Shown in pieces: positions 765 through 38,281 of a DNA stretch of 46,264 nucleotides. Source of the DNA: an uncultured Candidatus Saccharibacteria bacterium (GTDB lineage: Bacteria; Patescibacteriota; WWE3; UBA101185; UBA10185); NCBI GenBank assembly GCA_964605725.1, contig CAZSDQ010000003.1, forward strand, positions 1-46,264, read 5' to 3'. The translations under genes and the position numbers were made by a program. A model generated the notes under the pieces. It was not told the DNA's origin. It did no database searches and saw only the letters and a list, made by a program, of their open reading frames with translations. Within the stretch, counting starts at the first letter, position 1. Each line of letters begins with the position of its first letter.

Positions 765-808
765 TTTAATCCTTTTAAAAAATAACTACGGTTTTTCTTC
801 GTATTTTT

Positions 809-838
809 ATAATACCGAATAATAACCGAAGATGTCAA
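809..838 (-). promoter_or_regulatory. Sigma70-type promoter of lexA with a direct repeat in its spacer (candidate operator)
   Basis: Minus strand TTGACA-N18-TATTAT; the spacer contains TTCGG-N6-TTCGG (forward CCGAA at 815-819 and 826-830). Confidence 0.55.
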
Positions 839-863
839 GTGCTTTTTATGATATTATCATTCT

Positions 864-2930: not shown

Positions 2931-2999
2931 TTTTAAGTCTTATAGGTAGAGAAAATTCGAATTATTATTCACATATTTGCTAACGTCGGTTATATATTA

Positions 3000-3028
3000 T
3001 TGACTGCCTATATTTTTAATAATATATT
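3000..3028 (+). promoter_or_regulatory. Sigma70-type promoter upstream of the PBP gene
   Basis: TTGACT-N17-TATATT. Confidence 0.55.
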
Positions 3029-3056
3029 GGCATTAACTCCACCCGTATAAATAATT

Positions 3057-5324
3057 ATGCAATACCTGAATAAATTTTTAGAATTTGTTGAATTTACAGG
3101 AAATTCTATACTTTATGTTTTAAAATTACTTTTAGCACTATTAAAAAATATTTTTTCCTCTTTATTTATTAGAAGTAAAAAAGTTCCAAAAGAATATCAG
3201 GATAAACATAAAAAACCTCGGCTCTTTACATTTTTTGTTTTTATAAAAGACACAATAATATCGGTAATCTTTTGGATATTCAGATTGATTAAAGATATAG
3301 TCCTTTTTCCAAAAAAAATATTTACCTACCTTTTTTTAAGAAAGTCTTTTCTGTCTGGAATTTTATTTGCAATTTTTTTTATTTTCTTACCAATTACCAT
3401 TATTAGATGGTTTAAAGAATTACCCTCTCCGGAATCTTTGGTAATTGAGGCAAACAAAAAATCGACTGTAATTTTGGATAGAAATGGAAAACTAATGTAC
3501 GAGATTTACGTTGATAAAAATTATCACCCTGTAAATTTTGAAGAGATTCCTGAGTATGTTAAAAACGCTACATTAGCAGTTGAAGATGATAAATTTTACA
3601 GCCATTTTGGTATACGTTTTGATAGTGTAATCAGGGCAATTAAAAATAATTTATCAAAAGAGAATGGTTTACAAGGTGGTTCTACGATAACCCAACAGTT
3701 AGTGAAAAATGTACTTCTCACTCCTGAAAGAACTTTTTCCAGAAAGATTAAGGAGGCCGTTTTGGCTGTTTTGGTTGAAGCAAGATATTCAAAAAAAGAT
3801 ATATTTGAAATGTATTTGAACAACATTCCTTACGGCGGAACAGCGTGGGGAGTACAAACCGCCTCCAAAAAATATTTTAATAAAGATGTGTGGGAATTAT
3901 CCTTAGCAGAAGCTTCTTTGCTCGCAGGACTTCCTACCGCACCCACAAGTTACTCACCTGCCACAGACCTTGAAACTGCAAAATCAAGACAGAGGTTTGT
4001 TTTGGAGAGAATGCTTAATTTAGGATACATAAATAAAGAAGAGTTTAACAAAGCTATCTCCGAAGAACTAGTTTTTGCTGATACCGATGGATATATCCGG
4101 GCACCCCATTTTGTTGATTATATTAGAAAAGATTTAGAAAAAAGATATGGAAGAAGATATGTAGAGTTCGGCGGTCTTACTGTGACCACTACTTTGGATC
4201 TCGATATTCAAGATAAAGTTCAGTCGATAGTAACTGAAGAAGTAAATAAAAATTCATATTTAGGATTCTCTAACGGTGCTTCCGTAGTTATGGATGTTAA
4301 AAATGCGGAGGTTTTGGCGTATGTTGGTTCTATAGATTATTTTAAAGAAGGTTGGGGAGCTTATGATGTAGTTACTGCAATGAGACAACCAGGTTCTTCA
4401 ATAAAACCTGTAACTTACGGATTAGCTTTATCAGGTAGTTTTACTCCAGCTTCAATTATCGATGACTCTCCAGTTACATATAAATTTAAAGGATCTAAAG
4501 ATTACACTCCGGTTAATTATGATGGACAGTATCACGGAAAAGTTACGTTAAGACAAGCTTTAGCAAATTCATACAATATTCCTGCTGTAAAAGTAGCCAA
4601 TGTTGTTGGGGTTGATAATATTGTTTTAAAAGGAAGGGAGATGGGTCTTACCAATTGGGAGGTAGACGGATCTTACGGACTTTCGATAACGCTCGGGGGA
4701 AAGGAAGTGAGATTGTTAGACCATACGAATGTTTATGCAACTTTAGCTCGTCAAGGTGTTTATAAAGAACCGGAGGTCTACATAAGTATAAAAGATTCTA
4801 ATGGATATGATATCTACGAAAATGAAAATACTAAAAAAACAGTATTATCTCCCGAAGTTTCTTATTTATTGTGGGATATTTTATCTGATCAAAACGCCCG
4901 ACTCCCGGCTTTCGGTGTTAATAATTTCCTTTCAATTCCCGGACATAAGATTGCTGTAAAAACAGGCACAACCAATAACATTAAAGATAACTGGACATTA
5001 GGTTACACCCCGTCTTATGTAGTGGGAGTTTGGGTAGGTAATAATGACGGTACTCCGATGAGGCAAGGTTTGGCCTCCGGTCTTTCAGGAGCTGCTCCGA
5101 TTTGGAATAAGATAATGACAGAAATGTTAAAAGAAAAGCCAAATGAATTATATGAAAGACCTGCTAATGTGTTTGTAAAAAAAGATGACAGGTGTGGAAT
5201 TTCGGAAGTATTTATTAAAGGGACTATGATTCCTAGCAGTCTCTGTCCGGAGAAAGAGAAGGAGAAAGAGAAGGAAAATGATAAGGATGGAGGAAAGAAT
5301 AAGAAAGATAGAGATCGGGACTAA
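3057..5324 (+). CDS. Class A bifunctional penicillin-binding protein (GT51 transglycosylase plus transpeptidase, PBP1A family)
   Basis: GT51 motifs EDDKFYSHFG, GGSTITQQLVKN, RKIKE; transpeptidase motifs SxxK (GSSIKP), SxN (SYN), KTG; N-terminal membrane anchor; KE-rich tail. Confidence 0.95.
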   Translation: MQYLNKFLEFVEFTGNSILYVLKLLLALLKNIFSSLFIRSKKVPKEYQDKHKKPRLFTFFVFIKDTIISVIFWIFRLIKDIVLFPKKIFTYLFLRKSFLSGILFAIFFIFLPITIIRWFKELPSPESLVIEANKKSTVILDRNGKLMYEIYVDKNYHPVNFEEIPEYVKNATLAVEDDKFYSHFGIRFDSVIRAIKNNLSKENGLQGGSTITQQLVKNVLLTPERTFSRKIKEAVLAVLVEARYSKKDIFEMYLNNIPYGGTAWGVQTASKKYFNKDVWELSLAEASLLAGLPTAPTSYSPATDLETAKSRQRFVLERMLNLGYINKEEFNKAISEELVFADTDGYIRAPHFVDYIRKDLEKRYGRRYVEFGGLTVTTTLDLDIQDKVQSIVTEEVNKNSYLGFSNGASVVMDVKNAEVLAYVGSIDYFKEGWGAYDVVTAMRQPGSSIKPVTYGLALSGSFTPASIIDDSPVTYKFKGSKDYTPVNYDGQYHGKVTLRQALANSYNIPAVKVANVVGVDNIVLKGREMGLTNWEVDGSYGLSITLGGKEVRLLDHTNVYATLARQGVYKEPEVYISIKDSNGYDIYENENTKKTVLSPEVSYLLWDILSDQNARLPAFGVNNFLSIPGHKIAVKTGTTNNIKDNWTLGYTPSYVVGVWVGNNDGTPMRQGLASGLSGAAPIWNKIMTEMLKEKPNELYERPANVFVKKDDRCGISEVFIKGTMIPSSLCPEKEKEKEKENDKDGGKNKKDRDRD

Positions 5325-5422
5325 ACTGATTTTCAAGTATTTTAAAATTATATTAGTAAATTTTTAAACCCAAATAAAACCCGTAGACATAAACTACCTT
5401 TATCTTGTACAATGTTTACGTT

Positions 5423-8422: not shown

Positions 8423-8423
8423 T

Positions 8424-10157: not shown

Positions 10158-10180
10158 CCTCCAAATGCTACAATAACTAT

Positions 10181-11533
10181 GTGAAAACCTCAAATATTAG
10201 TCAAAAAGTTGAAAGTTTACCCCAAACGCCCGGTTCATATATTTTTAAAGATGCCGGTGGAAAGGTTATCTATGTTGGGAAAGCAAAAAATCTCAAGTCC
10301 CGTGTTAAATCATATTTTTCCGTAAGTATTCCTTCGGATTTTAAAACGGCGGAGTTAGTTAGTAAGATTAACGACCTCGAATTTATAAAAGTAGGTTCTG
10401 AATTTGAAGCCTTAATATTAGAAGCAGAATTGATAAAAAAATACAGGCCTAAGTACAACATTGTTTTAAAAGATGATAAATCAAGAATTTATATAGTTAT
10501 CAGGGATGATATTATTTCAATTTTGGGAAAAAAATATAAATTACCTAAGGTAATTACCGCACGTAAACCTGATTTAAGAGATTCTGACATAGTATTTGGG
10601 CCTTATCCTAACAATGTAGTTGTCAGAAAAATTCTTACAACATCAAGAAAAATATTTCCTTTTAGAGATTGTAACTACACTAAATTTGCCAAATACAGAA
10701 AGATTGGCTCTCCTTGTTTATATGGTCATATGGGAATTTGTCCTTCTCCTTGTTTAGTAAGCGAACCATCGGATTTGTCTAGTTACAAAAAGAACATTTT
10801 CGGTTTGAAAAAAATTTTATCCGGTAACGCGACCGGTCTAATAAAAAATATAAAAAGGAAAATGCAGATATATTCCCAAAATGAAAAATTTGAAGAAGCA
10901 GCAGTTTATAGAGATTTACTGGATAAATTTTATTTTGTACAAAAAACATTTAGAGAAGCGGAAGAGTATATTAACAATCCTTATTTAATTGATGATATAA
11001 ATAAAAAGTCTTTGGAGGAAATTAAAGATTTTTTGCCGTTTTTAAAAAATTTACCTCGAAGAATAGAGTGTTACGATATTTCAAATATATCCGGTAAAGA
11101 GGCCGTTGGTTCTATGGTAGTTTCAATAAACGGAAGTATTGATAAATCAGAGTACAAAAGATTTAAAATAAAATTTAAAAAAACACCCGATGATTTCGGT
11201 ATGATGTACGAGGTTTTATATAGAAGATTAAAAAGAGAGTTGCCGGGAAGTGACGTAAAAAGCTGGGGGCTTCCCGACCTCATTGTTGTAGACGGAGGTA
11301 AACCGCAGGTCTCCTCTGCTTCTGATGTTTTAAGAGATTTAGAGATATTAGTTCCGGTTGTAGGTATTGCAAAAAAATACGAGACTTTAGTTTATAAAGA
11401 AGGTAAGGATTTTATAGAAAAAACATTTCCTAAAGACAGTTTAGGAATGAAATTAATTATAAAATTAAGAGACGAATCCCACAGATTTGCTCAAAGTTAT
11501 CACCACCTACTAAGAAAAAGATCACTACTATAG
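10181..11533 (+). CDS. uvrC: Excinuclease ABC subunit C, short form without C-terminal HhH
   Basis: GIY-YIG domain (GSYIF..IYVGKAKNLKSRVKSYF), Cys cluster, UVR coil, RNase H-like domain (IECYDISN, DLIVVDGG, RDESHRFA). Confidence 0.93.
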   Translation: MKTSNISQKVESLPQTPGSYIFKDAGGKVIYVGKAKNLKSRVKSYFSVSIPSDFKTAELVSKINDLEFIKVGSEFEALILEAELIKKYRPKYNIVLKDDKSRIYIVIRDDIISILGKKYKLPKVITARKPDLRDSDIVFGPYPNNVVVRKILTTSRKIFPFRDCNYTKFAKYRKIGSPCLYGHMGICPSPCLVSEPSDLSSYKKNIFGLKKILSGNATGLIKNIKRKMQIYSQNEKFEEAAVYRDLLDKFYFVQKTFREAEEYINNPYLIDDINKKSLEEIKDFLPFLKNLPRRIECYDISNISGKEAVGSMVVSINGSIDKSEYKRFKIKFKKTPDDFGMMYEVLYRRLKRELPGSDVKSWGLPDLIVVDGGKPQVSSASDVLRDLEILVPVVGIAKKYETLVYKEGKDFIEKTFPKDSLGMKLIIKLRDESHRFAQSYHHLLRKRSLL

Positions 11534-11548
11534 TGATTTTTTTCTTTT
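11521..11548 (+). terminator. Possible intrinsic terminator at the uvrC stop
   Basis: ATCACTA-CTA-TAGTGAT hairpin followed by a T-rich tract; the stem is AT-rich and weak. Confidence 0.4.
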
Positions 11549-11585
11549 GCTTTTGTACTCTCAATAGATTTATAATCTAATCAAT

Positions 11586-11990
11586 ATGAGAAGTATTTTA
11601 AGAGCGTTAGTTTATACATTTATTTCTTTATATTTCACAAATTTGACCGTGGGATCGTTTTCTTATACTAACGGTAAGACCGCGTATTTAGTTGTTTTTG
11701 CAATCTCTCTTTTATACTTACTGTTAAGACCAGTTTTGTCAGTTGTTTCCTTACCGACTAAGGGAAGTGTTTTTTTATTAATTACAGTCATAACAACTTC
11801 TATTATTTTTTATGCTTTGCAAAGTGTGCTTCCGGATTTTTCATTTGTACCCGTTACACTGCGTAGTTTGAATATTTTTGGGCGTGTGCTACCATCTAAA
11901 GGCTTGGATAGCCTTTGGGCTATGATATTTTCTGCCCTTATGACAAGTACGATTTATTTATTTTTAGAAAGTCTTTGTAAAAGAAGGTAA
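11586..11990 (+). CDS. 4-TM membrane protein of the YvlD / superfamily IV holin-like family
   Basis: 134 aa, four hydrophobic segments, LLRPVLSVVSLP motif; housekeeping context rather than prophage. Confidence 0.65.
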   Translation: MRSILRALVYTFISLYFTNLTVGSFSYTNGKTAYLVVFAISLLYLLLRPVLSVVSLPTKGSVFLLITVITTSIIFYALQSVLPDFSFVPVTLRSLNIFGRVLPSKGLDSLWAMIFSALMTSTIYLFLESLCKRR

Positions 11991-11992
11991 TT

Positions 11993-12211
11993 ATGCTTGC
12001 ATTCACAAAAACATTACAATTAATAATTTCCGGCCTTTTAATAGTTCTGGTTTTGATACAGTCGAAATCTTCAGGTTTGTCATCTACATTGAAAAGTTCC
12101 TTTAACATGTATAGATCACTAAGAGGTTTTGAAAAGATAATTTTTGTCCTTACGGTTATATTAGGAGTTTTACTAGTAGTAAATTCTTTGGCTATTGTTT
12201 TGTTAAGCTAA
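11993..12211 (+). CDS. secG: Preprotein translocase subunit SecG
   Basis: 72 aa, two TM helices, LVLIQSKSSGLS and RGFEK motifs. Confidence 0.85.
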   Translation: MLAFTKTLQLIISGLLIVLVLIQSKSSGLSSTLKSSFNMYRSLRGFEKIIFVLTVILGVLLVVNSLAIVLLS

Positions 12212-12212
12212 T

Positions 12213-13547
12213 ATGCCGGGAATTTTTATTGAGGGTGGTACCCCTTTAATGGGTACCGTTTCAGTTTCAGGGGCTAAAAACTCAGCTTCTAAGCTTATTT
12301 ACGCCTCCATGTTTTCGAACGAGGAGGTAATTTTAAATAATGTTCCAAAAATAAAAACAATAATGGATGATATCGAAGTTATTCAAAGTGTTGGGGGAAG
12401 GGCGGAATGGGTTGGTACAAATTCGCTGTCTCTTAATGGGTCTCAAATAAATACTTATGAGATACCTGTTGAAGTTGGCTCAAAATTCCGAACTTCCACT
12501 TTATTAGCTGGGCCTCTTTTATATAGGTTCGGGAAGGCTTTTATTCCAAAATATAAATCACCCGACGAGAGTATTAGGCCGATTAACAGATTTATAGATA
12601 CTTGGAATTCTTTGGGTTTTCAAGTTCAGGATGATGAGGAATTCATAAAAATATTTAATGATGGTTCTGCAAAAGGATGTAGTATAAATTTTAAGGTTAC
12701 CAGCCACACTGCGACTGACAACGCTATCATCTCTTCGGTATTTGTTCCGGGGGAGACCGTTATATCCAGAGCATCTGATGAACCTGAAGTAGAGGATTTG
12801 ATTAATTTTTTAAATGGGATAGGAGGCTCTGTAGAGAAGCTTGAATCTGGGAAAATAAAAATTACCGGTAATTGTATTTTTAAAGAGACCTCCTTTGATG
12901 TTTGTTCAGATAAATCTGAAATAGCCACATTTGCCGCATTGGCAGTTTTAACTAAAGGTAATATCTCAATTAAAAACGTTAAGCGAGATTTAATATTGCA
13001 GTTTATTAACTTTTTAAATAAGATAGGGGCGAGATTTGAGTTTTCAGATGACGAGCTAAGAGTTTGGAGACACAGTGAGGAATTAAGTCCGCAAAATTTA
13101 GAAATATCTCCGACACCTGGTTTTTTACCGGAGTGGCAATCACTTGCAGTTTTGTTGTTAACACAAGCTGTGGGGGAAAGTATTATTCATGATACCGTGT
13201 ATGTTGATAGGTATGGGTATTGTGTTGACTTGAATAGAATGGGTGCAAAAATCGACATAGTTACTCCTTCGGAGGTTGGTTTGGCCACTGTGGTTAGTGA
13301 TGACTCCTACGACATTGAAAAAGAAGGAGAGCCTAAAACAGTAGCAAAGGTATCAGGGCCAACAAAATTAAAGGGAGAGAGGCTAACCTTGGAAAATTTT
13401 AAATACGGTGCTGTTTTAATTTTAGCAGCACTTTGCGCTGAAGGTAAAAGTGAGATAATTGGATTGGATATAGTTGATTGTTTTTTTGAGGGATTTGTTG
13501 ATAAACTTATTTCATTAGGAGCAAAAATATGGGAACAGTCGGATTAA
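12213..13547 (+). CDS. murA: MurA-family enolpyruvyl transferase with a degenerate active site
   Basis: GAKNS, RTS..GPL, RP and EPEV motifs and dcw context; the PGGC loop, PTD, DLR and DRGYE motifs are altered. Confidence 0.85.
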   Translation: MPGIFIEGGTPLMGTVSVSGAKNSASKLIYASMFSNEEVILNNVPKIKTIMDDIEVIQSVGGRAEWVGTNSLSLNGSQINTYEIPVEVGSKFRTSTLLAGPLLYRFGKAFIPKYKSPDESIRPINRFIDTWNSLGFQVQDDEEFIKIFNDGSAKGCSINFKVTSHTATDNAIISSVFVPGETVISRASDEPEVEDLINFLNGIGGSVEKLESGKIKITGNCIFKETSFDVCSDKSEIATFAALAVLTKGNISIKNVKRDLILQFINFLNKIGARFEFSDDELRVWRHSEELSPQNLEISPTPGFLPEWQSLAVLLLTQAVGESIIHDTVYVDRYGYCVDLNRMGAKIDIVTPSEVGLATVVSDDSYDIEKEGEPKTVAKVSGPTKLKGERLTLENFKYGAVLILAALCAEGKSEIIGLDIVDCFFEGFVDKLISLGAKIWEQSD

Positions 13548-14629
13548 TGCTTGATTTATTGTTATTGTTTTTGGCTTGTTTAATTGCTATTGTCTTGTAC
13601 CCGCTTTGGATAGATTTTGTATATAAGTTCCAGATGGGTGAAAGTATCAGGGGTGACGGTCCGGAAAGTCACAAAAGAAAAGAAGGCACCCCGACGATGG
13701 GTGGTATGGTTTTTGTTTTTACCGTAGCCGTAGTTAGTTTAGTCTTCAATCGATCCAGAACACAGACTCTCTTCCCTCTTTTTATTGCTACATTGGCTGG
13801 TTTGTTGGGTATGTTGGAAGATTTTACTAAAGTATATAAAAAGTCCGGTCTACCTGGTTTTTTTCATTATCACTTAGGCAGGTTTTTTAGAAAAAGATCT
13901 GAAGGTTTTTTAAAATTTAGTATTTTTGGAAAAATTTGGTCAATATTTAAAGAGGCTTCGAGATTGGTAGGAAGTTCGGATGACAGTGGAATACAAACCT
14001 ATAAGAAATTTATTATTCAGGGTTTAATAGCAGGATTTATTTCTTATTGGACGTATTTTAAATTAGGATGGGATTATATTTGGTTTCCACTTTTGGGTAA
14101 TGTTCATATAGGATTTGGTTATCCAGTAGTAATATTTTTCTTATTCATAGGGATTTTAAACGCAGTTGCTTTTACAGATGGACTTGATGGTTTAGCCGGA
14201 AGCCTTGCTTTAATTTCGTTCATTTCATTTTGGATATTATCTAAAATTCTTGGATATAATTCTTTAGCTGGTTTTTGTGCAACATTTGTAGGGGCTATGA
14301 TTCCTTTCTTATATTTTAATATCTTTCCCGCAAGGATATTTATGGGTAACGTGGGTTCATATGTTCTGGGAGCTGTTATGGCTATGCTTGCCGTTGTCAT
14401 GCATAGAGAAGTAGCATTTATATTCATAGGTATGATGTTTTTTATCGACGGAATATCCAGCCCTCTCCAGCAAATTGTATATAAAATTACACATAAGAGA
14501 TTATTTAGAATGGCTCCTATACACCATCATTTTGAAGTTTTGGGCTGGCCTGAGACAAAGATTACCTTAAGATTTGTTCTTTTTGGTGTGTTTTTTGCAT
14601 TTGTTGGGATATTCGTGGCAATTCTATAA
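13547..14629 (+). CDS. mraY: Phospho-MurNAc-pentapeptide translocase MraY with variant catalytic residues
   Basis: KEGTPTMGG, TDGLDGLA, FMGNVGS, MAPIHHHFE; ATG overlaps the murA stop (TAATG). Confidence 0.9.
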   Translation: MLDLLLLFLACLIAIVLYPLWIDFVYKFQMGESIRGDGPESHKRKEGTPTMGGMVFVFTVAVVSLVFNRSRTQTLFPLFIATLAGLLGMLEDFTKVYKKSGLPGFFHYHLGRFFRKRSEGFLKFSIFGKIWSIFKEASRLVGSSDDSGIQTYKKFIIQGLIAGFISYWTYFKLGWDYIWFPLLGNVHIGFGYPVVIFFLFIGILNAVAFTDGLDGLAGSLALISFISFWILSKILGYNSLAGFCATFVGAMIPFLYFNIFPARIFMGNVGSYVLGAVMAMLAVVMHREVAFIFIGMMFFIDGISSPLQQIVYKITHKRLFRMAPIHHHFEVLGWPETKITLRFVLFGVFFAFVGIFVAIL

Positions 14630-14644
14630 AATATCGCGCATTAA

Positions 14645-15823
14645 ATGAAAAAAAGAAATTCAAGAAAAACAGATATTTCCGGAAGAAAATTTTTTATTGC
14701 TGTTACATCCTTTTTATTATTTGGTTTGTTGATGATTGCCGATTCTACTTCTGTTTCATCCAAAAATCTTTATGGCGATCCTTATAGATTTGTTATTTTA
14801 CAAGCTACTTGGGCCGTAGCCGGGTTGATAGCTTTTTACTTTTTCTATCGAATCGATTATAGAAGTTTGGTTAAGATATCTAGATCATTATTTTTATTTA
14901 ATTTACTTGCTCTTATAGTTCTAGCTATAGTTGGGTTAATGCCGTGTTCCACGTCTATACCTTTTTCTCCCTGCGTTAATGGTGCAAACAGATGGTTATA
15001 TTTAAATCCCGCTCCTCTTCCGGCTATTCCTTTCCTGGGAGTATTGGGATTTCAACCCGGTGAGTTGGCAAAATTATCAGTGATAGTTTATTTAGCTTCT
15101 CAATTAAGTTTGATATCTCAAAAAGACAAATCTGCAAAAAATAAAAAACCATTCGAAGTGTACTTAAAAATCACTGTGTTAATGGCAGGATTAATAATAC
15201 TTCAACCAAATATGTCTACAGCCGCGATGGTTTTTATCTTAGGAACGATAATTTATTTTGTTTCAGGAGCTCCTTTAAAACCAATTTTTATCACTATTCC
15301 TATTTTTTTACTTTTAGCAATTTTGGTTATATTGTCGTCACCTTACAGGATGGCCAGACTAAAGGCTATGATATCGGGAGAAGACAGCAGTGAGTCTAGT
15401 TATCATGTTAAACAAGCTTTAGTAGCTTTAGGTTCCGGAGGCTTTTCTGGTGTTGGTTTTGGACAATCCAAACAAAAGTATCAATATCTTCCTGAAGTGG
15501 CTTCCGATTCTATTTTTGCAATCATCGGAGAAGAATTTGGTTTTATCGGAACGGTGGTTGTAGTTTTAGCCTATGGTCTTTTTATTTTTAAAGGTTTTAG
15601 AATTGCTAAAAAGTCTCAAGATATGTTTGGAAAATTAGTTTCCATCGGGATTAGTTCTTGGCTGGGAATTCAATTTTTTATTAATGTCGCTTCAATGACA
15701 AAGTTAATACCTATGACCGGTGTGCCGATTCCACTCATATCCTACGGTGGGTCCTCATTGGTTTTTTCGTTAATAGGCTTAGGTATTTTAGCCAATGTTC
15801 AAAAGAACTCATCGTTGGATTAA
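14645..15823 (+). CDS. ftsW: SEDS peptidoglycan polymerase FtsW
   Basis: NGANRW, FQPGELAK, LPEVASDSIFAIIGEEFG, GVPIPLISYGGSS; directly upstream of murG. Confidence 0.92.
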   Translation: MKKRNSRKTDISGRKFFIAVTSFLLFGLLMIADSTSVSSKNLYGDPYRFVILQATWAVAGLIAFYFFYRIDYRSLVKISRSLFLFNLLALIVLAIVGLMPCSTSIPFSPCVNGANRWLYLNPAPLPAIPFLGVLGFQPGELAKLSVIVYLASQLSLISQKDKSAKNKKPFEVYLKITVLMAGLIILQPNMSTAAMVFILGTIIYFVSGAPLKPIFITIPIFLLLAILVILSSPYRMARLKAMISGEDSSESSYHVKQALVALGSGGFSGVGFGQSKQKYQYLPEVASDSIFAIIGEEFGFIGTVVVVLAYGLFIFKGFRIAKKSQDMFGKLVSIGISSWLGIQFFINVASMTKLIPMTGVPIPLISYGGSSLVFSLIGLGILANVQKNSSLD

Positions 15824-15850
15824 ATTTCTTATTTAGAATAGAATAATCAT

Positions 15851-16960
15851 ATGAAAATTGTAATGACTGGCGGACACCACAGCTCCGCATTACCGGTAAT
15901 CAAAAAACTTAAAGAAAAAATTCCCGGCGTCGAAGTATTATGGATGGGTCATAAACATTCAATGCAGAGAGATAAGAACCCAACTCTGGAATACATTGAA
16001 ATTACTTCCTTAGGTATCCCTTTTTATGATTTGAAAGCAGGAAAAGTATATAAAACTTATAATATTGGTAGGTTGCTTAAGGTTCCTCTGGGATTTTTTC
16101 AAGCTTTTTGGTTTTTATTAAAAAACAGACCTGATGCGATAATGTCTTTTGGAGGATATTTAGCCGTTCCGGTGGTAATTGCAGGTTATATACTTGGTAT
16201 ACCCTCTCTTACCCATGAGCAGACTGTGGTCACAGGATATTCTAATAAACTTATTTCCAGATTTACTAAAAAAGTATTAGTATCATGGAAAGAAAGTGAA
16301 AAATATTTCCCTAAAGACAAGGTTTTATATGTAGGAATTCCTCTAAGGAAGGAAATATTCCATATCTCATCAGATTCTTTTAATTTTGATAACGATTTAC
16401 TTACAATCTACATATCTGCAGGAAAAACCGGCTCTCATATAATTAATCAAAATGTTTGCTATTCTCTAGAAAAGCTACTTACGTTTTGTAATATCATTCA
16501 TCAGTCGGGAGACCACTCTTTGTACAAGGATTTTGAAAAATTAGAGAGTAAGTACACGGAGATTAGAAATACAGTTAGAGGAAAGTACTATTTAAGGAAA
16601 TTTGTTTTGGAGGATGAGATAGGGGAAGCTTACATGAAAGCGGATTTAGTAGTTTCAAGATCGGGTGCACACACTATGTCGGAGATTATAGCATTACAAA
16701 AACCTTCCTTGTTAATACCTATTCCTTGGGTATCTCACAACGAGCAATATGAAAATGCGAAAATGGTAAAGGATTTAGGTTTAGCTTGTATATTAAATGA
16801 AAAAGATCTTAATCCTGAAAGTCTTATTGAGAATATAAAGTTTTGTTTATCCGATATTAATTCGATGAAAGTCAAGGATGAGTCAGCGTTGGATTTCTTA
16901 AAAAACGACCCTACGGAATTAATAACTAATGAAATTATTCAAATCTCAAAAAAAATCTAA
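15851..16960 (+). CDS. murG: Lipid II GlcNAc transferase MurG (GT28)
   Basis: TGGH, FGGY..VP, HEQ, SRSGAHTMSE, EQYENA motifs. Confidence 0.9.
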   Translation: MKIVMTGGHHSSALPVIKKLKEKIPGVEVLWMGHKHSMQRDKNPTLEYIEITSLGIPFYDLKAGKVYKTYNIGRLLKVPLGFFQAFWFLLKNRPDAIMSFGGYLAVPVVIAGYILGIPSLTHEQTVVTGYSNKLISRFTKKVLVSWKESEKYFPKDKVLYVGIPLRKEIFHISSDSFNFDNDLLTIYISAGKTGSHIINQNVCYSLEKLLTFCNIIHQSGDHSLYKDFEKLESKYTEIRNTVRGKYYLRKFVLEDEIGEAYMKADLVVSRSGAHTMSEIIALQKPSLLIPIPWVSHNEQYENAKMVKDLGLACILNEKDLNPESLIENIKFCLSDINSMKVKDESALDFLKNDPTELITNEIIQISKKI

Positions 16961-17822
16961 GAATATAATTCCTATAGTTAACAAAACTAGTTTGAGAAAT
17001 TCTTCTCAAACTCGTTCCTACTCAAATCATTCCAGAGAGAGTCAGATATTGCTTAATAATATTAATGATCGAAAAAGAAAAGTGATAAACTCCAGAGTAG
17101 TTTTGAGAAAAAAACATGGTATTTTTCTAAAGATTTTATTTTTACTTATAGTAGTTGGAGTAGTTATTTATTTATTTTTTAAATTTGATGTACCCGGTTA
17201 TTTTAAGATTTCAAAAGTTGCAATAACCGGTACAGAGAGATTTGTAAGCACGGAAGATGTCCGAAATATCGCTGAAAGAAATGCTTTTGGTAAATATATA
17301 TTTTCAATCGAAGAAGATAGTTTGTCCAAAATAATATCTAAAAGTTTTTTAGGTGCAAAAAATGTTTTTGTTAAAAAAGATTACCCAAATTCTTTAAATA
17401 TTTATATAGAAGAACGTGTCCCCGTGGCTTTTGTATTTAATAGTGAAGGGGAGTTCTATCTTATTGATTCTGAAGGTTTCGTATTAGGAATGGTTACCGA
17501 GAGTCTTCAGGACTTACCAAGAATAAATTACGAAGGATCGGTGGTGGTAGGGACATTTTTAGATAAAGATATCATTCCTATAAGTATTGAGATATTAAAA
17601 TTTGCAGATAGGGAAGATCTAAGCATCAGTAGTATGAGTTTTACTTCAAACTATGCTAAATTATATCTTAATATCGGACCGGAAATTTTTATGGGTTACA
17701 GTAAAGATATTGAAAAATCATTGAGAACAATTAAAGCTTTGTTGAGCAATCAAAATAATAATGAAGAGGTTATAAAAAAAATTGATTTACGGTATGATAA
17801 AGTAATAGTATTATATGATTAA
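16929..17822 (+). CDS. ftsQ: Cell division protein FtsQ/DivIB
   Basis: Basic N-terminus, single TM, POTRA-like segment (FKISKVAITG), C-terminal IDLRY; position between murG and ftsA. Confidence 0.8.
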   Translation: MKLFKSQKKSKNIIPIVNKTSLRNSSQTRSYSNHSRESQILLNNINDRKRKVINSRVVLRKKHGIFLKILFLLIVVGVVIYLFFKFDVPGYFKISKVAITGTERFVSTEDVRNIAERNAFGKYIFSIEEDSLSKIISKSFLGAKNVFVKKDYPNSLNIYIEERVPVAFVFNSEGEFYLIDSEGFVLGMVTESLQDLPRINYEGSVVVGTFLDKDIIPISIEILKFADREDLSISSMSFTSNYAKLYLNIGPEIFMGYSKDIEKSLRTIKALLSNQNNNEEVIKKIDLRYDKVIVLYD

Positions 17823-17833
17823 ATTAAAACTCT

Positions 17834-19087
17834 ATGTCTAGGGAGAAAATAATTACAGGAATTGATATTGGATCTACCAAAATTACAACTGTTGTTGCAT
17901 CTGTGTCAGATAACAAGGTTTCAGTAATAGGTGTTTCCGGGAACATACCGTCAAAAGGTATAAACAAAGGTAATGTTGTTGACATCGACAGCTCGGTTGA
18001 GGCCATATCACAAAGCATAGAAAAAGCTGAAAGAATGGCGGGGGTATCGATTTCAAATGCTTTTGTAACTTTGAATGGAAGTCACATTGAAAATCTAAAT
18101 TCACACGGTGTTGTTGCAGTTTCCCCAAATGAAACTTCAGAAATAACTAAAGAAGATGTTTCTAGAGTAATTGAAGCTGCCCAGGCAGTATCTTTGCCAT
18201 CCACAAGAGAAATAGTTCATGTTATCCCAAGAGATTTCGTAGTTAACTCACAGGAAGGTATAAAGGATCCTGTCGGAATGTCAGGCGTTAGGCTCGAGGT
18301 TGAGACAAATGTAATACACGGTTCTGCAACTGCAATGAAAAATATTGCTAAGTGTGTAAATAAGGTTGCGATTGATGTTGACGAACTTGTCTATACTGGT
18401 TTAGCATCCGCAGAAGCCGTATTAACAGATACTGAAAAAGAGTTAGGTACTTTATTAGTGGACATTGGTGGTGGTACAACGTCGGTGGTCGCATTTTTGG
18501 ACGGAAGTCCCATTCATTCGGCGGTTCTGCCGATAGGTGGGAAATTAATCACTAGTGATTTGGCAATAGGTTTGAGGTCAAGACTTGAAGACGCTGAAAA
18601 AATAAAAATAAGACTTAGCAACGAGGCTTTAATTTCCAAAACAGATATTCATGATGATGGCGAGGATTTTGACGTGTCAGAATTTGATTTAGAGGTCGAA
18701 AGAATTCCAAGAATAATGCTTTATAAGATTGTAAACGCGAGATTAGAAGAAATATTCAGACTCATTGCTTTAGAAGTAACAAGATCGGGGTTAAGCGGTA
18801 AACTCCCAGCGGGAGTGGTGATAACCGGCGGAGCCGCTATGACCGCAGGTACAGAAAAGAGTGCAAAAGTAAATTTAAAAATGCCTGTTAGAATAGGTGT
18901 TCCTAAGGGAGTAACCGGTTTAATAGATGAGATAAAAGGACCCGATTCTTCTGCCGCTGTCGGAGCTGTGTTGTACGGTGCTAAACTCTTTAGAGGCAGT
19001 AATCTATTGTCATTTGATAATAAAAACGGTAGTATAAGGAAAGGCGCTTCTAAGATACTATCAAAACTTAAATCGCTTCTGCCCTAG
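17834..19087 (+). CDS. ftsA: Cell division protein FtsA
   Basis: GIDIGSTK, VDIGGGTT, VVITGG actin-fold motifs. Confidence 0.96.
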   Translation: MSREKIITGIDIGSTKITTVVASVSDNKVSVIGVSGNIPSKGINKGNVVDIDSSVEAISQSIEKAERMAGVSISNAFVTLNGSHIENLNSHGVVAVSPNETSEITKEDVSRVIEAAQAVSLPSTREIVHVIPRDFVVNSQEGIKDPVGMSGVRLEVETNVIHGSATAMKNIAKCVNKVAIDVDELVYTGLASAEAVLTDTEKELGTLLVDIGGGTTSVVAFLDGSPIHSAVLPIGGKLITSDLAIGLRSRLEDAEKIKIRLSNEALISKTDIHDDGEDFDVSEFDLEVERIPRIMLYKIVNARLEEIFRLIALEVTRSGLSGKLPAGVVITGGAAMTAGTEKSAKVNLKMPVRIGVPKGVTGLIDEIKGPDSSAAVGAVLYGAKLFRGSNLLSFDNKNGSIRKGASKILSKLKSLLP

Positions 19088-19130
19088 AAGTATTTTTTTA
19101 AAATTAATTAATCTGCCCAAAAAATAAATA

Positions 19131-20273
19131 ATGCAAGTAAAGCCTGAAGTTGAAAATTTCGCAAAAATAAAAGTTTTAGGTATTGGCGGGGCTGGAGGAA
19201 ACGTAATAAATTCAATGATTGAATCCGGCCAGATTACCGGTGTTGAATTTATTGCGATTAATACCGATGCCCAAGATTTATCAGTTAACAAGGCGGTGGT
19301 TAAAGTACCTATTGGTCAGGAAATAACAAATGGTTTAGGTTCTGGAGCAAACCCGGAAATTGGCAGGAAAGCAGCTGAGGAATCTGTTGATTTAATAAAA
19401 GAGCATCTTGACGGAGCCGACATGATATTTATTACAGCAGGTATGGGGGGCGGTACAGGTACCGGTGCCTCACCGGTTGTAGCAAGAGTTGCTAAAGAGA
19501 TGGGTGCCCTTACAATTGGTGTAGTTACAAAGCCGTTTCCTTTTGAGGGTGCTTTGAGAATGAAAAATGCAGAAATAGGTATATCTGAACTTAGGGATGA
19601 GGTTGATGCTTTAATTACTATTCCCAATCAAAGGTTATTGGAAGTTGCAGATGAAAATATGTCTATTATTGAAGCGTTCAAACTTTCTGATAGCGTTTTG
19701 AATCAGGGAGTTCAGGGTATTTCAGATTTAATAGTTATGCCGGGATTAATAAATGTGGATTTTGCGGATGTTAAAACTATTATGAAAGATGCCGGTACAG
19801 CACTTATGGGCATAGGTATAGGTACCGGGGAGAATAGAGCGGAACTTGCTGCAAAAGCCGCAATTTCATCACCTTTATTAGAACAATCAGTCGAAGACGC
19901 AAAAGGTATTTTATTCAATGTTATCGGTGGTTCTGACTTAACAATGAAAGAGGTTGATAAGGCCGCTAATATTATTAGAAATATTGCCAATGACGAAGCG
20001 AATATTATATTTGGAACAACTATTGATCCAAGAATTTCCGGTCAGGTTAAAATTACAGTTATTGCAACTGGTTTTGATGTAAAACAGGAAGATTTGGGGT
20101 ACGGATTTGTGGAAAGAAATTTGCCTAAGCCTGCTCCTGCGGAAGAACAATATATTAAAAAAGAGGAGCCGAAATCAATTCCGGAAAAGCCAAAAGATAT
20201 GTTCAAGCCCGAAGATTTTGAAGGTGAGTTTGAAAGTAAATACGACATACCGGCATTTTTAAGAGGTAAATAG
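19131..20273 (+). CDS. ftsZ: Cell division protein FtsZ
   Basis: GIGGAGGN, GGGTGTG tubulin signature, INVDFADV, C-terminal DIPAFLR. Confidence 0.99.
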   Translation: MQVKPEVENFAKIKVLGIGGAGGNVINSMIESGQITGVEFIAINTDAQDLSVNKAVVKVPIGQEITNGLGSGANPEIGRKAAEESVDLIKEHLDGADMIFITAGMGGGTGTGASPVVARVAKEMGALTIGVVTKPFPFEGALRMKNAEIGISELRDEVDALITIPNQRLLEVADENMSIIEAFKLSDSVLNQGVQGISDLIVMPGLINVDFADVKTIMKDAGTALMGIGIGTGENRAELAAKAAISSPLLEQSVEDAKGILFNVIGGSDLTMKEVDKAANIIRNIANDEANIIFGTTIDPRISGQVKITVIATGFDVKQEDLGYGFVERNLPKPAPAEEQYIKKEEPKSIPEKPKDMFKPEDFEGEFESKYDIPAFLRGK

Positions 20274-20427
20274 AAATCCTACTTATAAAAAATACGTTTC
20301 AAGTCTTAATTACACTAAATATTATCAAATTGTCTAATATTCACTGCTTGGATTTTTAATAAAATTTTGGTTATATTAACGATAGGCAGTAAAAATTCCT
20401 TTTGAAGATAAAAGTATAAAATTTCTT

Positions 20428-20477
20428 GTGAGTTGTTGGCCTTTGTGTATTTAGGGCAGCAGAGGTTTTTAACTCAC
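20428..20477 (+). promoter_or_regulatory. Candidate structured 5' leader of nrdJ
   Basis: GTGAGTT (20428-34) pairs with AACTCAC (20471-77), enclosing an imperfect GTTGGCCT/AGGGCAGC hairpin; ends 15 nt before the ATG. Confidence 0.35.
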
Positions 20478-20492
20478 TAAATAATAATAAAA

Positions 20493-23072
20493 ATGAATTC
20501 GTATCTTTATTTTAATGATGAGTCGGATTTACAGAAAAATGAAAAAATAGACTTTTCAGAAAACGGAAGAACTATTTTAGAAAAAAGATATTTAAGGAGA
20601 AATAAATTAGGTGAGATCGAAGAAACCCCCGAGGATATGTTTCAAAGAGTGGCAAACGCGATTGCCGAACCGGATGAGCCTTATAGAAATCCTGAGAAAA
20701 CCTCCATTGAGTTTTATAATCTAATTTCCACCAAAAAATTTTTTCCTAACTCTCCTACATTTACTGGAGCGGGAACTCCCATCGGACAATTGGCTGCTTG
20801 TTTTGTATTGCCGGTGGAAGACGACCTTGGAAAAAGCAGAGATGGAATTTTTCAGACATTAAGAAACGCAGCACTGATTCAGCAATCCGGTGGCGGAAAT
20901 GGCTTTTCATTTTCAAGATTAAGAGCCAAGGGGTCGAGAATTTCAACGAGCAACGGTTTGTCCACTGGGCCTGTGGGATTTATGGAGGCATATAACGGTG
21001 CTTTTGGTGTAATAGCTCAAGGCGGGGTAAGAAAAGGCGCAAATATGGGAATATTGAGAGTAGATCATCCGGATATAAGAGAGTTTATTACAGCTAAAAC
21101 TACTGAAGGAAAACTATCAAATTTTAATATATCCGTTGCTTTAACAGATAAATTTTTAGAAGCTGTTGAAAAAGATGAAACATATGAAATTTTTGATCCT
21201 CATACAAAAGAGATTGTGGAAACTCCGAAAGCCAGAGAGATATTTGATCTAATAGTTGAAAATGCATATAAAAACGGAGAACCCGGAGTTCTATTTATTG
21301 ATACGGCTAATAAAGATAACCCTGTTCCCAGCCTTTATGAATTGGAAGCTACAAATCCATGCGGGGAGCAGTGGCTTGGCCCTTATGAAAACTGTTGCTT
21401 GGGATCAATAAATTTATCTGAGCATATTACAAGTGATAATAAAATAGATTGGGAAGAATTAAGAAAAACTGTAATACTATCCACAAGGTTTTTAGATAAC
21501 GTAGTAAGTGCAAATAAATATGTTCCGGCAGTACCTCAATTAAAAGAGGCAGCCCATCAAAATAGAAGAATCGGTTTAGGAATTATGGGTTTGGCTGATT
21601 TATTTTATGTTTTGGGAGTAAGGTACGGTAGCGAGGAGGCACAGGATTTGGCAGGGCAGGTAATGGAATTTATTCGCTTCCACGCTATGAAAGCGTCTAT
21701 AGAGTTGGCAAAAGAGAGAGGGCCTTTCCCAGCTATCAAAGACAGTATCTTCAATCCATCTAATTTAGTTTGGACTCCTCCCACTCCACTAAAGAGTTTT
21801 TCGTTTGGCTGGGAAAGGCCCGCCATCGATTGGAGTGAAATAACGAACGGAATAAGACTGTATGGTTTAAGAAATGCTGCTGTTACAACGGTAGCCCCAA
21901 CAGGTACCATTTCTACTGTTGCTGGAGTAGAGGGTTATGGGTGTGAGCCAGTTTTTGCACTTGCTTATCTTAGAAATGTCTACCAAGCAGCAGGTGACTT
22001 GGAGAAAATGACTCTGACCTATGTCAGCCCGTCATTTCAAAAAGCGTTAGACGATATAGACATGAGTGATGTTAAGAGAAGAGAGATTATTGATGAGATA
22101 ATTCGAGTAGGTTCGTGTCAAAGTATAAAAGATTTACCCGATGATCTACGACATACATTTGTGGTATCAGGTGATATTACGCCAGAAGAACATATTTATA
22201 TGCAAGCTTCTTTGCAGAGATTTGTAGATAACTCAATTTCTAAGACATGTAATTTACCCCCAACAGCAGTTCCCGAGGATGTCGAAAAAGTATATATGAT
22301 GGGTTGGAAATTGGGTTGTAAAGGTTTAACAGTATATGTTTCGGGCAGTAGACAAGAAGAGGTATTAGTTACACAAGAAAAAAAAGAATCAACAACCGAA
22401 GGTGGTAAATCCGATGGTGAAAAACCGGTGGAAGAAGGAAAAATTGATGCCAATAAAGATGTATCAAAAGAAATTACAAATAATGAAGAAAAATTAATCG
22501 TAGAAAAACCCTCTGATGTTAAATTAGAACGTGAGTATAGATTAAATGGTTCAACTTACTGTGTAAAAACACCTCAAGGAAAAGCTTTTATTACAATAAA
22601 TAAGGATTCTAACGGCAGGCCTTTTGAGGTATTTATTAATGTTGGAAAGGCAGGTACTGATGTTTCTGCATTATCTGAAGGTTTAGGTAGATTAGTTAGT
22701 GGTTGGCTTAGAGTTCCCGGGGCATCAGAAAATGCTGTAACTGAGATTATTTCTCAATTAGGAGGTATCGGCGGTAGTAGATCGGTAGGTTTTGGAAAAA
22801 ATAAAGTTAGTTCCATTCCTGATGCTGTGGCAAAAGTATTGTCTGAAGAACTTGGGTATTCTTTGTTAAAAAATCAGTCAAATGGAAACGGGGATAATTT
22901 TATAAGTACAAAAATAAACACAGAATCCTTAAACATACGTAGTGATGCCAGCGGGGTAAGTTTAAATCCTGTAACCGGAAATATCGATGTGTGTCCTGAT
23001 TGCGGAAATTATTCCTTCATCAAAGAAGAGGGTTGTGCTAAATGCTACCTTTGTGGATACTCTGTTTGTTAG
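20493..23072 (+). CDS. nrdJ: Class II (adenosylcobalamin-dependent) ribonucleotide reductase
   Basis: TNPCGE catalytic loop, AACFVL, NCCLGSINL, APTGTIS, DNSISKTCN, GCKGLTVY; C-terminal TSCPD-like domain and CPDC..CAKCYLCGYSVC; no recognisable ATP cone. Confidence 0.95.
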   Translation: MNSYLYFNDESDLQKNEKIDFSENGRTILEKRYLRRNKLGEIEETPEDMFQRVANAIAEPDEPYRNPEKTSIEFYNLISTKKFFPNSPTFTGAGTPIGQLAACFVLPVEDDLGKSRDGIFQTLRNAALIQQSGGGNGFSFSRLRAKGSRISTSNGLSTGPVGFMEAYNGAFGVIAQGGVRKGANMGILRVDHPDIREFITAKTTEGKLSNFNISVALTDKFLEAVEKDETYEIFDPHTKEIVETPKAREIFDLIVENAYKNGEPGVLFIDTANKDNPVPSLYELEATNPCGEQWLGPYENCCLGSINLSEHITSDNKIDWEELRKTVILSTRFLDNVVSANKYVPAVPQLKEAAHQNRRIGLGIMGLADLFYVLGVRYGSEEAQDLAGQVMEFIRFHAMKASIELAKERGPFPAIKDSIFNPSNLVWTPPTPLKSFSFGWERPAIDWSEITNGIRLYGLRNAAVTTVAPTGTISTVAGVEGYGCEPVFALAYLRNVYQAAGDLEKMTLTYVSPSFQKALDDIDMSDVKRREIIDEIIRVGSCQSIKDLPDDLRHTFVVSGDITPEEHIYMQASLQRFVDNSISKTCNLPPTAVPEDVEKVYMMGWKLGCKGLTVYVSGSRQEEVLVTQEKKESTTEGGKSDGEKPVEEGKIDANKDVSKEITNNEEKLIVEKPSDVKLEREYRLNGSTYCVKTPQGKAFITINKDSNGRPFEVFINVGKAGTDVSALSEGLGRLVSGWLRVPGASENAVTEIISQLGGIGGSRSVGFGKNKVSSIPDAVAKVLSEELGYSLLKNQSNGNGDNFISTKINTESLNIRSDASGVSLNPVTGNIDVCPDCGNYSFIKEEGCAKCYLCGYSVC

Positions 23073-23106
23073 TTCTTAATATACTTGGTTAATTAGAATA
23101 TTCTGA

Positions 23107-23134
23107 TTGACTGTAACCTATTTTAGGGTATATT
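23107..23134 (+). promoter_or_regulatory. Sigma70-type promoter upstream of pduO
   Basis: TTGACT-N16-TATATT, the same hexamers as the promoter at 3000-3028. Confidence 0.5.
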
Positions 23135-23157
23135 GATGCCATTCTGTCCTATTTCAT

Positions 23158-23709
23158 ATGTATAAAATATATACAAAAGAAGGGGATTTAGGATTTACCT
23201 CCTTATCAAATATGTTTAAAAAAATTTCTAAAACCGAATTTATTTTTGATGTTTTGGGAACTTTCGATGAGTTAGAAGTTTCCTTGGGCTTTCTTCACTC
23301 AGCCAGATTAGATGATGTGAGGAAAGTTGCAAAAGAAGTTCAGAAAGACTTATTTTCATTAGGATCCGTTATTTCATCAAATGAAAGAATATCAAAAGAG
23401 TCTGTTGAAAAGTGGGAAAACAGAATTAAAGAGTTAGAAGAGGTAATTGATTATTTTAATAATAAAAATGACCCTCTTGAGAGTTTTATTCTTCCAGGAG
23501 GATGTAGGGAGAGCAGCTTTTTACATTTATCACGCGTAACTTGCAGAAAACTTGAAAGAATGGTTTTTCAATATTTAAAAAAAGATAAGAATAAGTTGTT
23601 TATTGGTAAATATTTAAACAGGCTGTCTGACCTCTTATTCGTAATGGCGAGATACTCAAATAAAAAGCTTGGCTTTAAGGATATAATCTGGAACAATAAA
23701 GAGTTGTGA
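23158..23709 (+). CDS. pduO: ATP:cob(I)alamin adenosyltransferase, PduO type
   Basis: KIYTKEGD, GTFDEL, FILPGG, RKLER, YLNRLSDLLFVMAR. Confidence 0.92.
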   Translation: MYKIYTKEGDLGFTSLSNMFKKISKTEFIFDVLGTFDELEVSLGFLHSARLDDVRKVAKEVQKDLFSLGSVISSNERISKESVEKWENRIKELEEVIDYFNNKNDPLESFILPGGCRESSFLHLSRVTCRKLERMVFQYLKKDKNKLFIGKYLNRLSDLLFVMARYSNKKLGFKDIIWNNKEL

Positions 23710-31636: not shown

Positions 31637-31699
31637 TCGGGTTAATTTTACACGATAATTACACTAAGGTCTTTAATAAAATGTTAAAATTGCATAAAT

Positions 31700-35419: not shown

Positions 35420-35442
35420 TTTATCAAGCTTAATAATATAAT

Positions 35443-38245: not shown

Positions 38246-38256
38246 AAAAATATAAT

Positions 38257-38278: not shown

Positions 38279-38281
38279 TTT

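Follow-up and report, generated by a model that had tools for sequence, protein, structure and literature searches.

The 46,264-nt stretch analysed here (contig CAZSDQ010000003.1 of assembly GCA_964605725.1; hereafter the window) carries, at positions 12,213–20,273, a division and cell wall (dcw) cluster in the order murA-mraY-ftsW-murG-ftsQ-ftsA-ftsZ. We put the probability at roughly 60% that this locus represents a derived state of the WWE3 crown group, in which only the late stages of peptidoglycan synthesis would operate, on a precursor not made by the known route. Bacteria usually either make peptidoglycan by the full route or not at all, and reduced pathways tend to retain their cytoplasmic part at the expense of the polymerases. 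An entire class-level lineage of ultra-small bacteria seems to show the opposite pattern here, with all membrane and extracytoplasmic enzymes tightly constrained and the precursor enzymes dropped. If true, this would point to a hitherto unrecognised route of wall-precursor acquisition, and thereby to the kind of material that these episymbionts obtain from host cells. Nature would also have supplied a MurA pseudoenzyme that has acquired a new role, and a MraY in which two of three "essential" aspartates are replaced, useful for studying the mechanism of this antibiotic target.

Judging by its MurA and MraY homologs and by comparison with 80 loci drawn from species-representative genomes, the window is assigned to candidate division WWE3 (Katanobacteria, Patescibacteria). 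The block PBP1-UvrA-TGase-UvrC-membrane protein-MurA-MraY-FtsW-MurG-FtsQ-FtsA-FtsZ-NrdJ (PBP, penicillin-binding protein; TGase, transglutaminase-like protein) was common to about 55 species-level WWE3 loci. Among the loci with this synteny is RAAC2_WWE3_1 (L017), a closed chromosome of 878,109 bp, which belongs to the same large WWE3 crown group as the window and has the same signatures in MraY and in the MurA homolog, below called MurA*. An identical MraY protein was found in 29 independent assembly blocks, including the NCBI metagenome-assembled genome GCA_018000735.1, always in the same context; the sequence of the cluster is therefore real and no assembly artefact. Gene identities and order in the window were taken from Pfam and NCBIfam scans. 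All genes from murA to ftsZ lie on the plus strand, spaced by 11–43 nt or overlapping, in agreement with the tight packing described in a first-pass annotation made from the sequence alone.

Missing precursor genes and the history of the cluster

Neither Pfam and NCBIfam scans nor tblastn with the proteins of relatives detected a Mur ligase, MurB, Ddl, FtsI or MraZ/W in the 46-kb window, and no Mur ligases or ddl were found in the 10 kb past either end. The absence of murB-F, ddl, ftsI and mraZW noted in the first-pass annotation thus holds for the window itself, but does not amount to a loss of mraZ, mraW and ftsI. Contig extension using same-species assemblies placed mraZ-mraW-ftsL-ftsI on the same strand left of the window, with the end of ftsI at about 6.8 kb and the start of mraZ at about 10 kb beyond its left end, and about 23 kb upstream of murA; a loss of mraW, ftsL and ftsI was rejected on these grounds. 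Between this group and murA lie genes for a response regulator, a histidine kinase, PPDK, enolase, LexA, UvrABC and a PBP. The collinearity of the dcw genes (mraZ/W-ftsL-ftsI ... mraY-ftsW-murG ... ftsQ-ftsA-ftsZ) is kept across an interruption of about 20 kb. The window holds one part of a split cluster; the genes for FtsI and MraZ/W are retained beyond its left end.

Two sites that carry precursor genes in relatives are empty in the window's genome. Between ftsW and murG, the loci L031 and L028 encode MurD-MurE-MurC-MurF, where the window has a 27-nt spacer. At the second site, between His_Phos and enolase, L153 carries DUF5715-282aa-Ddl-MurF-MurA2-MurB; the two flanking genes are separated by 20 bp in the window's genome. 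L153 is a WWE3 relative whose UvrB, LexA and PPDK are 70, 71 and 67% identical to those of the window's genome. The arrangement in L031 (13973–19463) is itself uncommon, as MurD and MurE are encoded on the plus strand and MurC and MurF on the minus strand, and opposite-strand ligases inside a dcw cluster are unusual.

Wider searches extended the picture. Throughout 984 kb of WWE3 loci, tblastn yielded no match to MurB or Ddl. Scanning metagenomes with a WWE3 MurD was uninformative, since all matches were non-WWE3 with at most 38% identity. Five further loci with a canonical MurA (L027, L030, L041, L026 and L029, all assigned to group C, see below) have no ligases within 10 kb. Among the four genomes published by Kantor et al. 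(2013, mBio, PMC3812714), RAAC2_WWE3_1 was the only one in which no complete peptidoglycan pathway could be identified, which bears out, for the same lineage, the first-pass statement that some members of the Candidate Phyla Radiation (CPR) have been reported to lack full peptidoglycan synthesis. As MurA*, MraY and MurG would have counted as identified, we reason that the gap in RAAC2 must lie among MurB-F and Ddl. The decay of catalytic residues in the cluster MurA also argues for ligase loss. Altogether, the ligases have probably been lost from this genome.

The gene order itself is old. A Microgenomates-type outgroup (L061) has the order mraW-ftsI-MurE-CofD-MurC-MurB-MurA-MraY-FtsW-MurG-...-FtsA-FtsZ. 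The basal, WWE3-labelled locus L087 reads mraW-ftsL-ftsI-murA-...-(aminotransferase-Mur ligase fusion)-ddl-murF on its left side and mraY-ftsW-murG-ftsQ-ftsA-ftsZ-nrdJ-adenosyltransferase-ileS on its right, and because the right ends match, this locus and that of the window can be regarded as orthologous. Comparison of these loci indicates that the murA-mraY-ftsW-murG backbone is ancestral, shared with Microgenomates and basal WWE3, and that the derived part consists of the missing precursor genes; the view of the gene order as a new remodelling was not upheld. The fusion gene in L087 (6464–9040) encodes an 858-aa protein, in which a DegT/aminotransferase domain is joined to a complete Mur ligase, upstream of ddl-murF.

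Compared with the canonical dcw cluster of Escherichia coli and Bacillus subtilis (mraZ-mraW-ftsL-ftsI-murE-murF-mraY-murD-ftsW-murG-murC-ddl-ftsQ-ftsA-ftsZ), the window's genome has homologous genes and shares the orders mraZ-mraW-ftsL-ftsI and mraY-ftsW-murG-ftsQ-ftsA-ftsZ. It differs by the lack of murC, murD, murE, murF and ddl, by the murA homolog directly upstream of mraY, a CPR trait also found in Microgenomates, and by the split through some 20 kb of unrelated genes including those for LexA, UvrABC and the class A PBP. Reduction has gone further in a monophyletic WWE3 subclade (L042, L043, L045, L047), where mraY is cleanly deleted and murA abuts ftsW, with murA*, ftsW, murG and ftsQAZ kept.

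MurA* and the MraY variant

MurA* has the fold and similarity of MurA (PF00275, E=6e-43; NF006873, 336 bits against a cut-off of 297; best PDB matches all MurA, E=2.5e-52), and it remains below the equivalog cut-off (TIGR01072, 329.6 vs 392.7 bits). In the alignment to solved MurA structures, the catalytic loop PGG(C)xIGxRPxD is replaced by YKSPDESIRPIN; the core PGGCxIGxRP reads YKSPDESIRP in the window protein, with a proline at the position of Cys115. Furthermore, D305 is changed to Glu, R371 to Lys and R397 to Cys (C423), and K22 and R120 are retained.

For a broader comparison, MurA sequences were sorted into 37 canonical ones, comprising group C (L026–L031, L040, L041, L052) and 28 outgroups, and 27 of the crown group, including the window and RAAC2. 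All 37 canonical sequences have K22, N23, R91, Cys or Asp115 in PGG[CD]xIG.RP, R120, D305, R371 and R397. Not one of the 27 crown sequences has Cys115, the loop at this position being hypervariable, or R397, which is replaced by C, E, Y, K or N; R120 (11/27), K22 (12/27) and R371 (16/27) are kept in part. Largely retained are N23 (26/27), R91 (27/27), D305 (24/27, Glu in the window) and R331 (23/27), which we take from MurA structures to be the UDP-GlcNAc contacts and the general base. When crown and canonical MurA were compared column by column, canonical MurA had 59 columns with a conservation of 95% or more, of which 15 were lost in the crown group; every one of the 15 belongs to the catalytic loop, K22, R371 or the RGY motif, and there were no newly constrained columns.

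The ratio of nonsynonymous to synonymous substitution rates (dN/dS) was 0.02–0.06 (about 0.03) for MurA* compared with 0.025 for the canonical MurA of group C; as these are pairwise Nei-Gojobori estimates with dS of 1–2.5, near saturation, the absolute values are approximate, and the comparison of genes within a pair is still fair. Since the chemistry appears to be lost while dN/dS matches that of canonical MurA, MurA* is best described as a conserved pseudoenzyme and not as a decaying gene. It is plausibly non-catalytic: in the crown group the catalytic Cys loop is gone and the residues binding the phosphate of phosphoenolpyruvate (K22, R120, R397) are wholly or mostly lost, the presumed UDP-sugar contacts are kept, and the gene evolves under purifying selection. 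The start of mraY precedes the stop of murA by 19 nt in the window, and overlaps of 10–19 nt occur in about 26 of 43 loci, suggesting co-translation and perhaps a shared function.

Replacement of the catalytic cysteine alone is not exceptional. Natural Cys115-to-Asp variants of MurA are found in Mycobacterium and Chlamydia, and half of our outgroups were of this Asp type. These variants, including all 14 Asp-type outgroups, have kept the acidic residue in PGGDxIGxRP as well as K22, R120 and R397, whereas the crown WWE3 proteins, in which the cysteine is likewise replaced, have no conserved residue at this position and have wholly lost R397. Two candidate peculiarities of MurA were discarded: an "insertion" at residues 350–378 is shared by CPR and Chloroflexi outgroups, and the reading frame in L054 that seemed to fuse MurA and MraY results from a scaffold gap of 100 N. 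L153 encodes a second MurA (11380–12702, minus strand) next to MurB; this paralog is highly divergent, with 27–31% identity to the cluster MurA, and has kept PGGC and NKN.

MraY of the window was aligned to E. coli and Clostridium bolteae MraY and within a set of 75 sequences. In E. coli numbering, D115 is replaced by Glu (E97 in the window), N192 by Ala (A214) and D267 by Asn (N274), and D116 (D98), N189, D195, D198, K133 and HHH are kept. Hence, only one of the three catalytic aspartates (D115, D116, D267) is retained, the others being changed from D to E and from D to N throughout the clade. Of the motifs NxxNxxDGxDG, Lys and PxHHHxE, the window protein has N211, D217, D220, K160 (corresponding to K116 of B. 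subtilis) and H332–334, and the second Asn (N171 of B. subtilis) is Ala. Mutagenesis of the B. subtilis enzyme identified D98, D99, K116, N171, D174, D231, H289 and H290 as important; the D98N mutant was still active, with a shifted pH optimum (PMC5039524). Five of these eight residues are retained and three changed in the window.

This E/A/N signature was present in nearly all of about 45 WWE3 species examined, in which D98, K101, K160, N211, D217, D220, G273, G276, S277 and HHH are invariant. With dN/dS of 0.016–0.039, MraY is on par with FtsZ and FtsA and below FtsW, MurG and the PBP. In L031 (UBA1401) and L028, the same signature stands alongside a fully canonical MurA and MurD, MurE, MurC and MurF in the cluster, so that it must predate ligase loss and is not erosion; the substitutions as a consequence of ligase loss were rejected for the same reason. 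A neighbour-joining tree of seven proteins, with short basal branches, traces the E/A/N state back to the root of the entire syntenic clade. Column-by-column comparison of ligase-bearing with crown-group loci revealed a single fixed difference in FtsW and none in either MraY or MurG. Strongly constrained and without a fixed difference from its ligase-bearing relatives, MraY is therefore probably an active enzyme with an unusual active site, as far as can be judged from sequence comparison. In L049 and L051, MraY is of another type (D-E/G/S-D), which arose after ligase loss.

The structural model agrees with an assignment to MraY. Other PNPT transferases (WecA, TagO, GPT/DPAGT1) resemble the window protein in their superfamily fold and in motifs of the DD and NxxNxxDGxDG types; the window protein differs from WecA and GPT by its HHH loop. 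An AlphaFold2 model (predicted TM score 0.81) gave Foldseek TM scores of 0.75–0.87 to MraY structures, vs about 0.55 to GPT (GlcNAc-1-P transferases), and the protein scored above the cut-off for MraY (TIGR00445, 213 vs 192 bits) and far below that for WecA (TIGR02380, 46 vs 326 bits). An insertion of 46 aa (residues 107–152, window positions 13847–13984), basic and aromatic, follows the helix of the DD motif and is predicted with low confidence to form two helices. It occurs in all WWE3 and in the closest ligase-bearing outgroups (L060 type), and not in Microgenomates or in MraY structures of the PDB. As these closest outgroups combine it with canonical residues, the insertion predates the substitutions. 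Microgenomates-type MraY from full-ligase genomes show variation of another kind, with H-L-W/Y or H-V-Y replacing the "invariant" HHH (L057, L061, L062, L065, L067, L070, L073, L075, L080, L081, L083, L085 and L086).

The first-pass annotation had called both MurA and MraY eroded, with catalytic residues lost. The substitutions themselves were confirmed by the structure alignments; decay is contradicted in both cases by the low dN/dS, and MraY, whose changes are conservative, fixed in the clade and shared with relatives that have canonical MurA and MurD/E/C/F, is even among the most constrained genes of the cluster. The further suggestion that both proteins are non-catalytic is plausible for MurA* and at odds with the invariant residues and low dN/dS of MraY. 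As genome markers, the catalytic loop and R397 of MurA and the ED/A/N signature of MraY could help to tell full- from reduced-pathway WWE3.

Late-stage enzymes and the source of the precursor

MurG has intact TGGH, HEQ, GAxTxxE and QxxNA motifs, with H9, H122-E-Q, E278, Q299 and N302 invariant in 40 orthologs. It is divergent, falling below the TIGR01133 cut-off (186 < 250 bits), yet every motif is invariant. FtsW has an intact PE...D288, and D288, E284, GSGG, EE and SYGGS are invariant in 44 orthologs. The same holds for E176, E233, S448xxK, S505xN and K635TG of the class A PBP in 19 WWE3 orthologs. FtsI, available as one sequence from outside the window, contains S356xxK, S411xN and K554TG. 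The motifs of FtsW, MurG and the class A PBP, already listed as intact in the first-pass annotation, were thus not only present but invariant among orthologs. MurG, FtsW, FtsI and the class A PBP all look functional by their intact and constrained sequences, and the intact transpeptidase sites of both PBPs imply a peptide of the D-Ala-D-Ala type.

The comparisons show an ancestor with the order mraW-ftsL-ftsI-murA-(Mur ligases)-ddl-murF-mraY-ftsW-murG-ftsQAZ-nrdJ, which basal WWE3 and Microgenomates have kept; in the window's genome the cluster is split and both orthologous sites lack the cytoplasmic precursor genes. The cluster MurA has turned into a conserved pseudoenzyme, its gene overlapping mraY, and the D-to-E, N-to-A, D-to-N variant of MraY is older than the ligase loss. 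Under the late-stage-only reading, lipid I and lipid II would still be made, and peptidoglycan would be polymerised and cross-linked, at least at division. UDP-MurNAc-pentapeptide could come from a host or partner cell or be made by unrecognised enzymes, and MurA* may bind a UDP-sugar and act as a partner or regulator of MraY. Patescibacteria generally depend on hosts for nucleotides and lipids, which makes a host or partner the likeliest source; it is on this basis that we infer the scavenging of host precursor already considered in the first-pass annotation. A more specific version, in which crown WWE3 take up host UDP-MurNAc-pentapeptide or a muropeptide-derived equivalent and feed it into the MraY-MurG-FtsW/FtsI-PBP line, with MurA* as a precursor-binding adaptor or gatekeeper for MraY, is offered as a tentative and rather doubtful proposal.

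Several points weigh against late-stage-only synthesis. In L154–L157, loci of unassigned lineage, a solitary murF stands in unrelated neighbourhoods, and some related genomes can thus have their ligases dispersed over other sites. The second, Cys-bearing MurA of L153 means that a dead cluster MurA is no proof of pathway loss. For the ligases, the view of the window's own genome covers about 66 kb. The MurF search, which returned about 15 WWE3-like clusters and none on at least 12 large crown-group contigs, provides moderate and imperfect evidence, because it missed the known WWE3 MurF of L031. Single D-to-N mutants of MraY at the Mg2+ site have been reported to be strongly impaired, and we know of no precedent for the import of UDP-MurNAc-pentapeptide. 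The short basal branches of the tree and the near-saturated dS belong here as well.

A complete pathway, with MurB, MurC-F, Ddl and a canonical MurA paralog of the MurA2 type encoded elsewhere and the cluster MurA redundant and in a new role, appears unlikely. It would be in line with the arrangement of the second MurA beside MurB in L153, with the group C loci that pair a canonical MurA with no ligase nearby, with the solitary murF genes and with MraY, MurG and FtsW being free of a functional shift. It conflicts with the incomplete pathway reported for the closed RAAC2 genome and with both orthologous ligase sites being empty in the window's genome, and it leaves unexplained why no large crown-group contig was among the WWE3-like MurF matches and why 984 kb of WWE3 loci held no match to MurB or Ddl. 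The first-pass annotation had also considered a non-canonical glycan; in the lipid-linked form weighed here, MraY would move a different phospho-sugar, for instance GlcNAc-1-P or an enolpyruvyl sugar, and MurG, FtsW and the PBP would build a polymer that is peptide-free or contains a different peptide. We regard this as improbable: relatives with canonical MurA and MurC-F have this very MraY signature, neither MraY nor MurG has fixed differences between ligase-bearing and ligase-less loci, FtsW shows no functional shift either, the MraY-specific HHH loop is kept in a fold that is MraY-like and not of the GPT/WecA type, and the invariant transpeptidase sites of both PBPs imply a D-Ala-D-Ala-type peptide. 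Such a glycan would, in turn, accommodate the three altered residues among the eight experimentally important ones of MraY, the nearby GH18 hydrolase, LysM proteins and polysaccharide cluster (see below), and the subclade that has lost mraY and kept murA*, ftsW and murG.

The mraY deletion and the degenerate catalytic site of MurA would also fit a role of both proteins as non-catalytic divisome scaffolds, with no lipid II being made and the late enzymes as relics or moonlighting proteins. This is very improbable in view of the invariant catalytic residues of MraY, MurG, FtsW, FtsI and the class A PBP (about 20–45 species per protein, one sequence for FtsI) and of a MraY dN/dS as low as that of FtsZ. 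Sequencing or assembly errors, or pseudogenes, have next to no chance of explaining the substitutions, given identical proteins in at least 29 independent assembly blocks, intact reading frames, a signature kept across about 45 species and dN/dS far below 1.

Partial-pathway bacteria of the Wolbachia, Anaplasma and Orientia type, Chlamydiae and the mosaic of mealybug endosymbionts usually keep the cytoplasmic MurA-F and lose the polymerases. The WWE3 state would share with the Wolbachia and Chlamydiae type that it is reductive and possibly partner-reliant, but it would be reversed, with the late steps kept and the early ones missing. Literature searches on peptidoglycan in WWE3/Katanobacteria, on CPR MurA/MraY, on WWE3 Mur ligases and on cryo-EM or S-layers retrieved a single relevant sentence, that of Kantor et al. 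(PMC3812714), and that paper says nothing of a dead MurA, a variant MraY, intact late enzymes or a stepwise history. Hence, the incomplete WWE3 pathway has been known since 2013; new with regard to the searched literature are a MurA that is dead yet conserved, an ancestral MraY variant occurring beside a full pathway, late-stage enzymes that have stayed intact, the splitting of the cluster and a series of losses, the deletion of mraY among them.

Gene content of the window and its surroundings

From the left, the window encodes LexA (minus strand), UvrB, the class A PBP, UvrA, a transglutaminase-like protein (minus strand), UvrC, a 134-aa membrane protein and SecG, followed by MurA*, MraY, FtsW, MurG, FtsQ, FtsA, FtsZ, NrdJ, a PduO-type adenosyltransferase and IleRS (Table 1). 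To the right of IleRS lie genes for ribosomal proteins and a signal peptidase and a polysaccharide-type cluster (GH18, Wzx-like, Wzy_C, GalU-like).

Table 1. Coordinates and supporting matches of the cell-wall and division genes and two adjacent genes in the window
Feature	Position	Strand	Evidence
Class A PBP (GT51 glycosyltransferase + transpeptidase), between uvrB and uvrA	3057..5324	+	Pfam Transgly, Transpeptidase; TIGR02074 537 bits > 509
134-aa membrane protein, upstream of murA throughout WWE3	11586..11990	+	Weak PF04020; syntenic in ~50 loci
SecG	11993..12211	+	PF03840
MurA*, putative MurA-derived pseudoenzyme	12213..13547	+	PF00275 E=6e-43; NF006873 336 bits > 297
MraY variant	13529..14629	+	TIGR00445 213 bits > 192
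FtsW (SEDS glycosyltransferase)	14645..15823	+	PF01098 E=8e-90
MurG	15851..16960	+	PF03033 + PF04101
FtsQ	16929..17822	+	POTRA_1
FtsA	17834..19087	+	TIGR01174 375 bits
FtsZ	19131..20273	+	TIGR00065 418 bits

The class A PBP and the transglutaminase-like gene sit among lexA, uvrB, uvrA and uvrC (132–11533), an arrangement kept in about 50 WWE3 species. This conserved embedding suggests a possible joint regulation of the PBP and the SOS/repair genes. When the window (10181–11990) was compared with its closest relative, L008, dS was 0.21 for UvrC and 0.51 for the 134-aa membrane protein, vs 0.85–1.56 for their neighbours; this low-dS stretch looks like a recent recombination tract.

The surface-polysaccharide cluster was seen at positions 30395–39160, together with L089:2076–5418 just right of the window. 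It encodes a GH18 hydrolase, a Wzx-like flippase and a Wzy_C polymerase as well as a 697-aa protein without family match, a protein with an Ig/glucodextranase-B domain and a GalU-like enzyme. LysM-domain proteins are encoded beside it, just past the edge of the window. Finally, the gene of the B12-dependent ribonucleotide reductase NrdJ always follows ftsZ, and the adenosyltransferase next to it is of the PduO type in the window (region 20493–23709) and of the CobA type in the basal L087 (region 17896–20836), a non-orthologous replacement at the same position.

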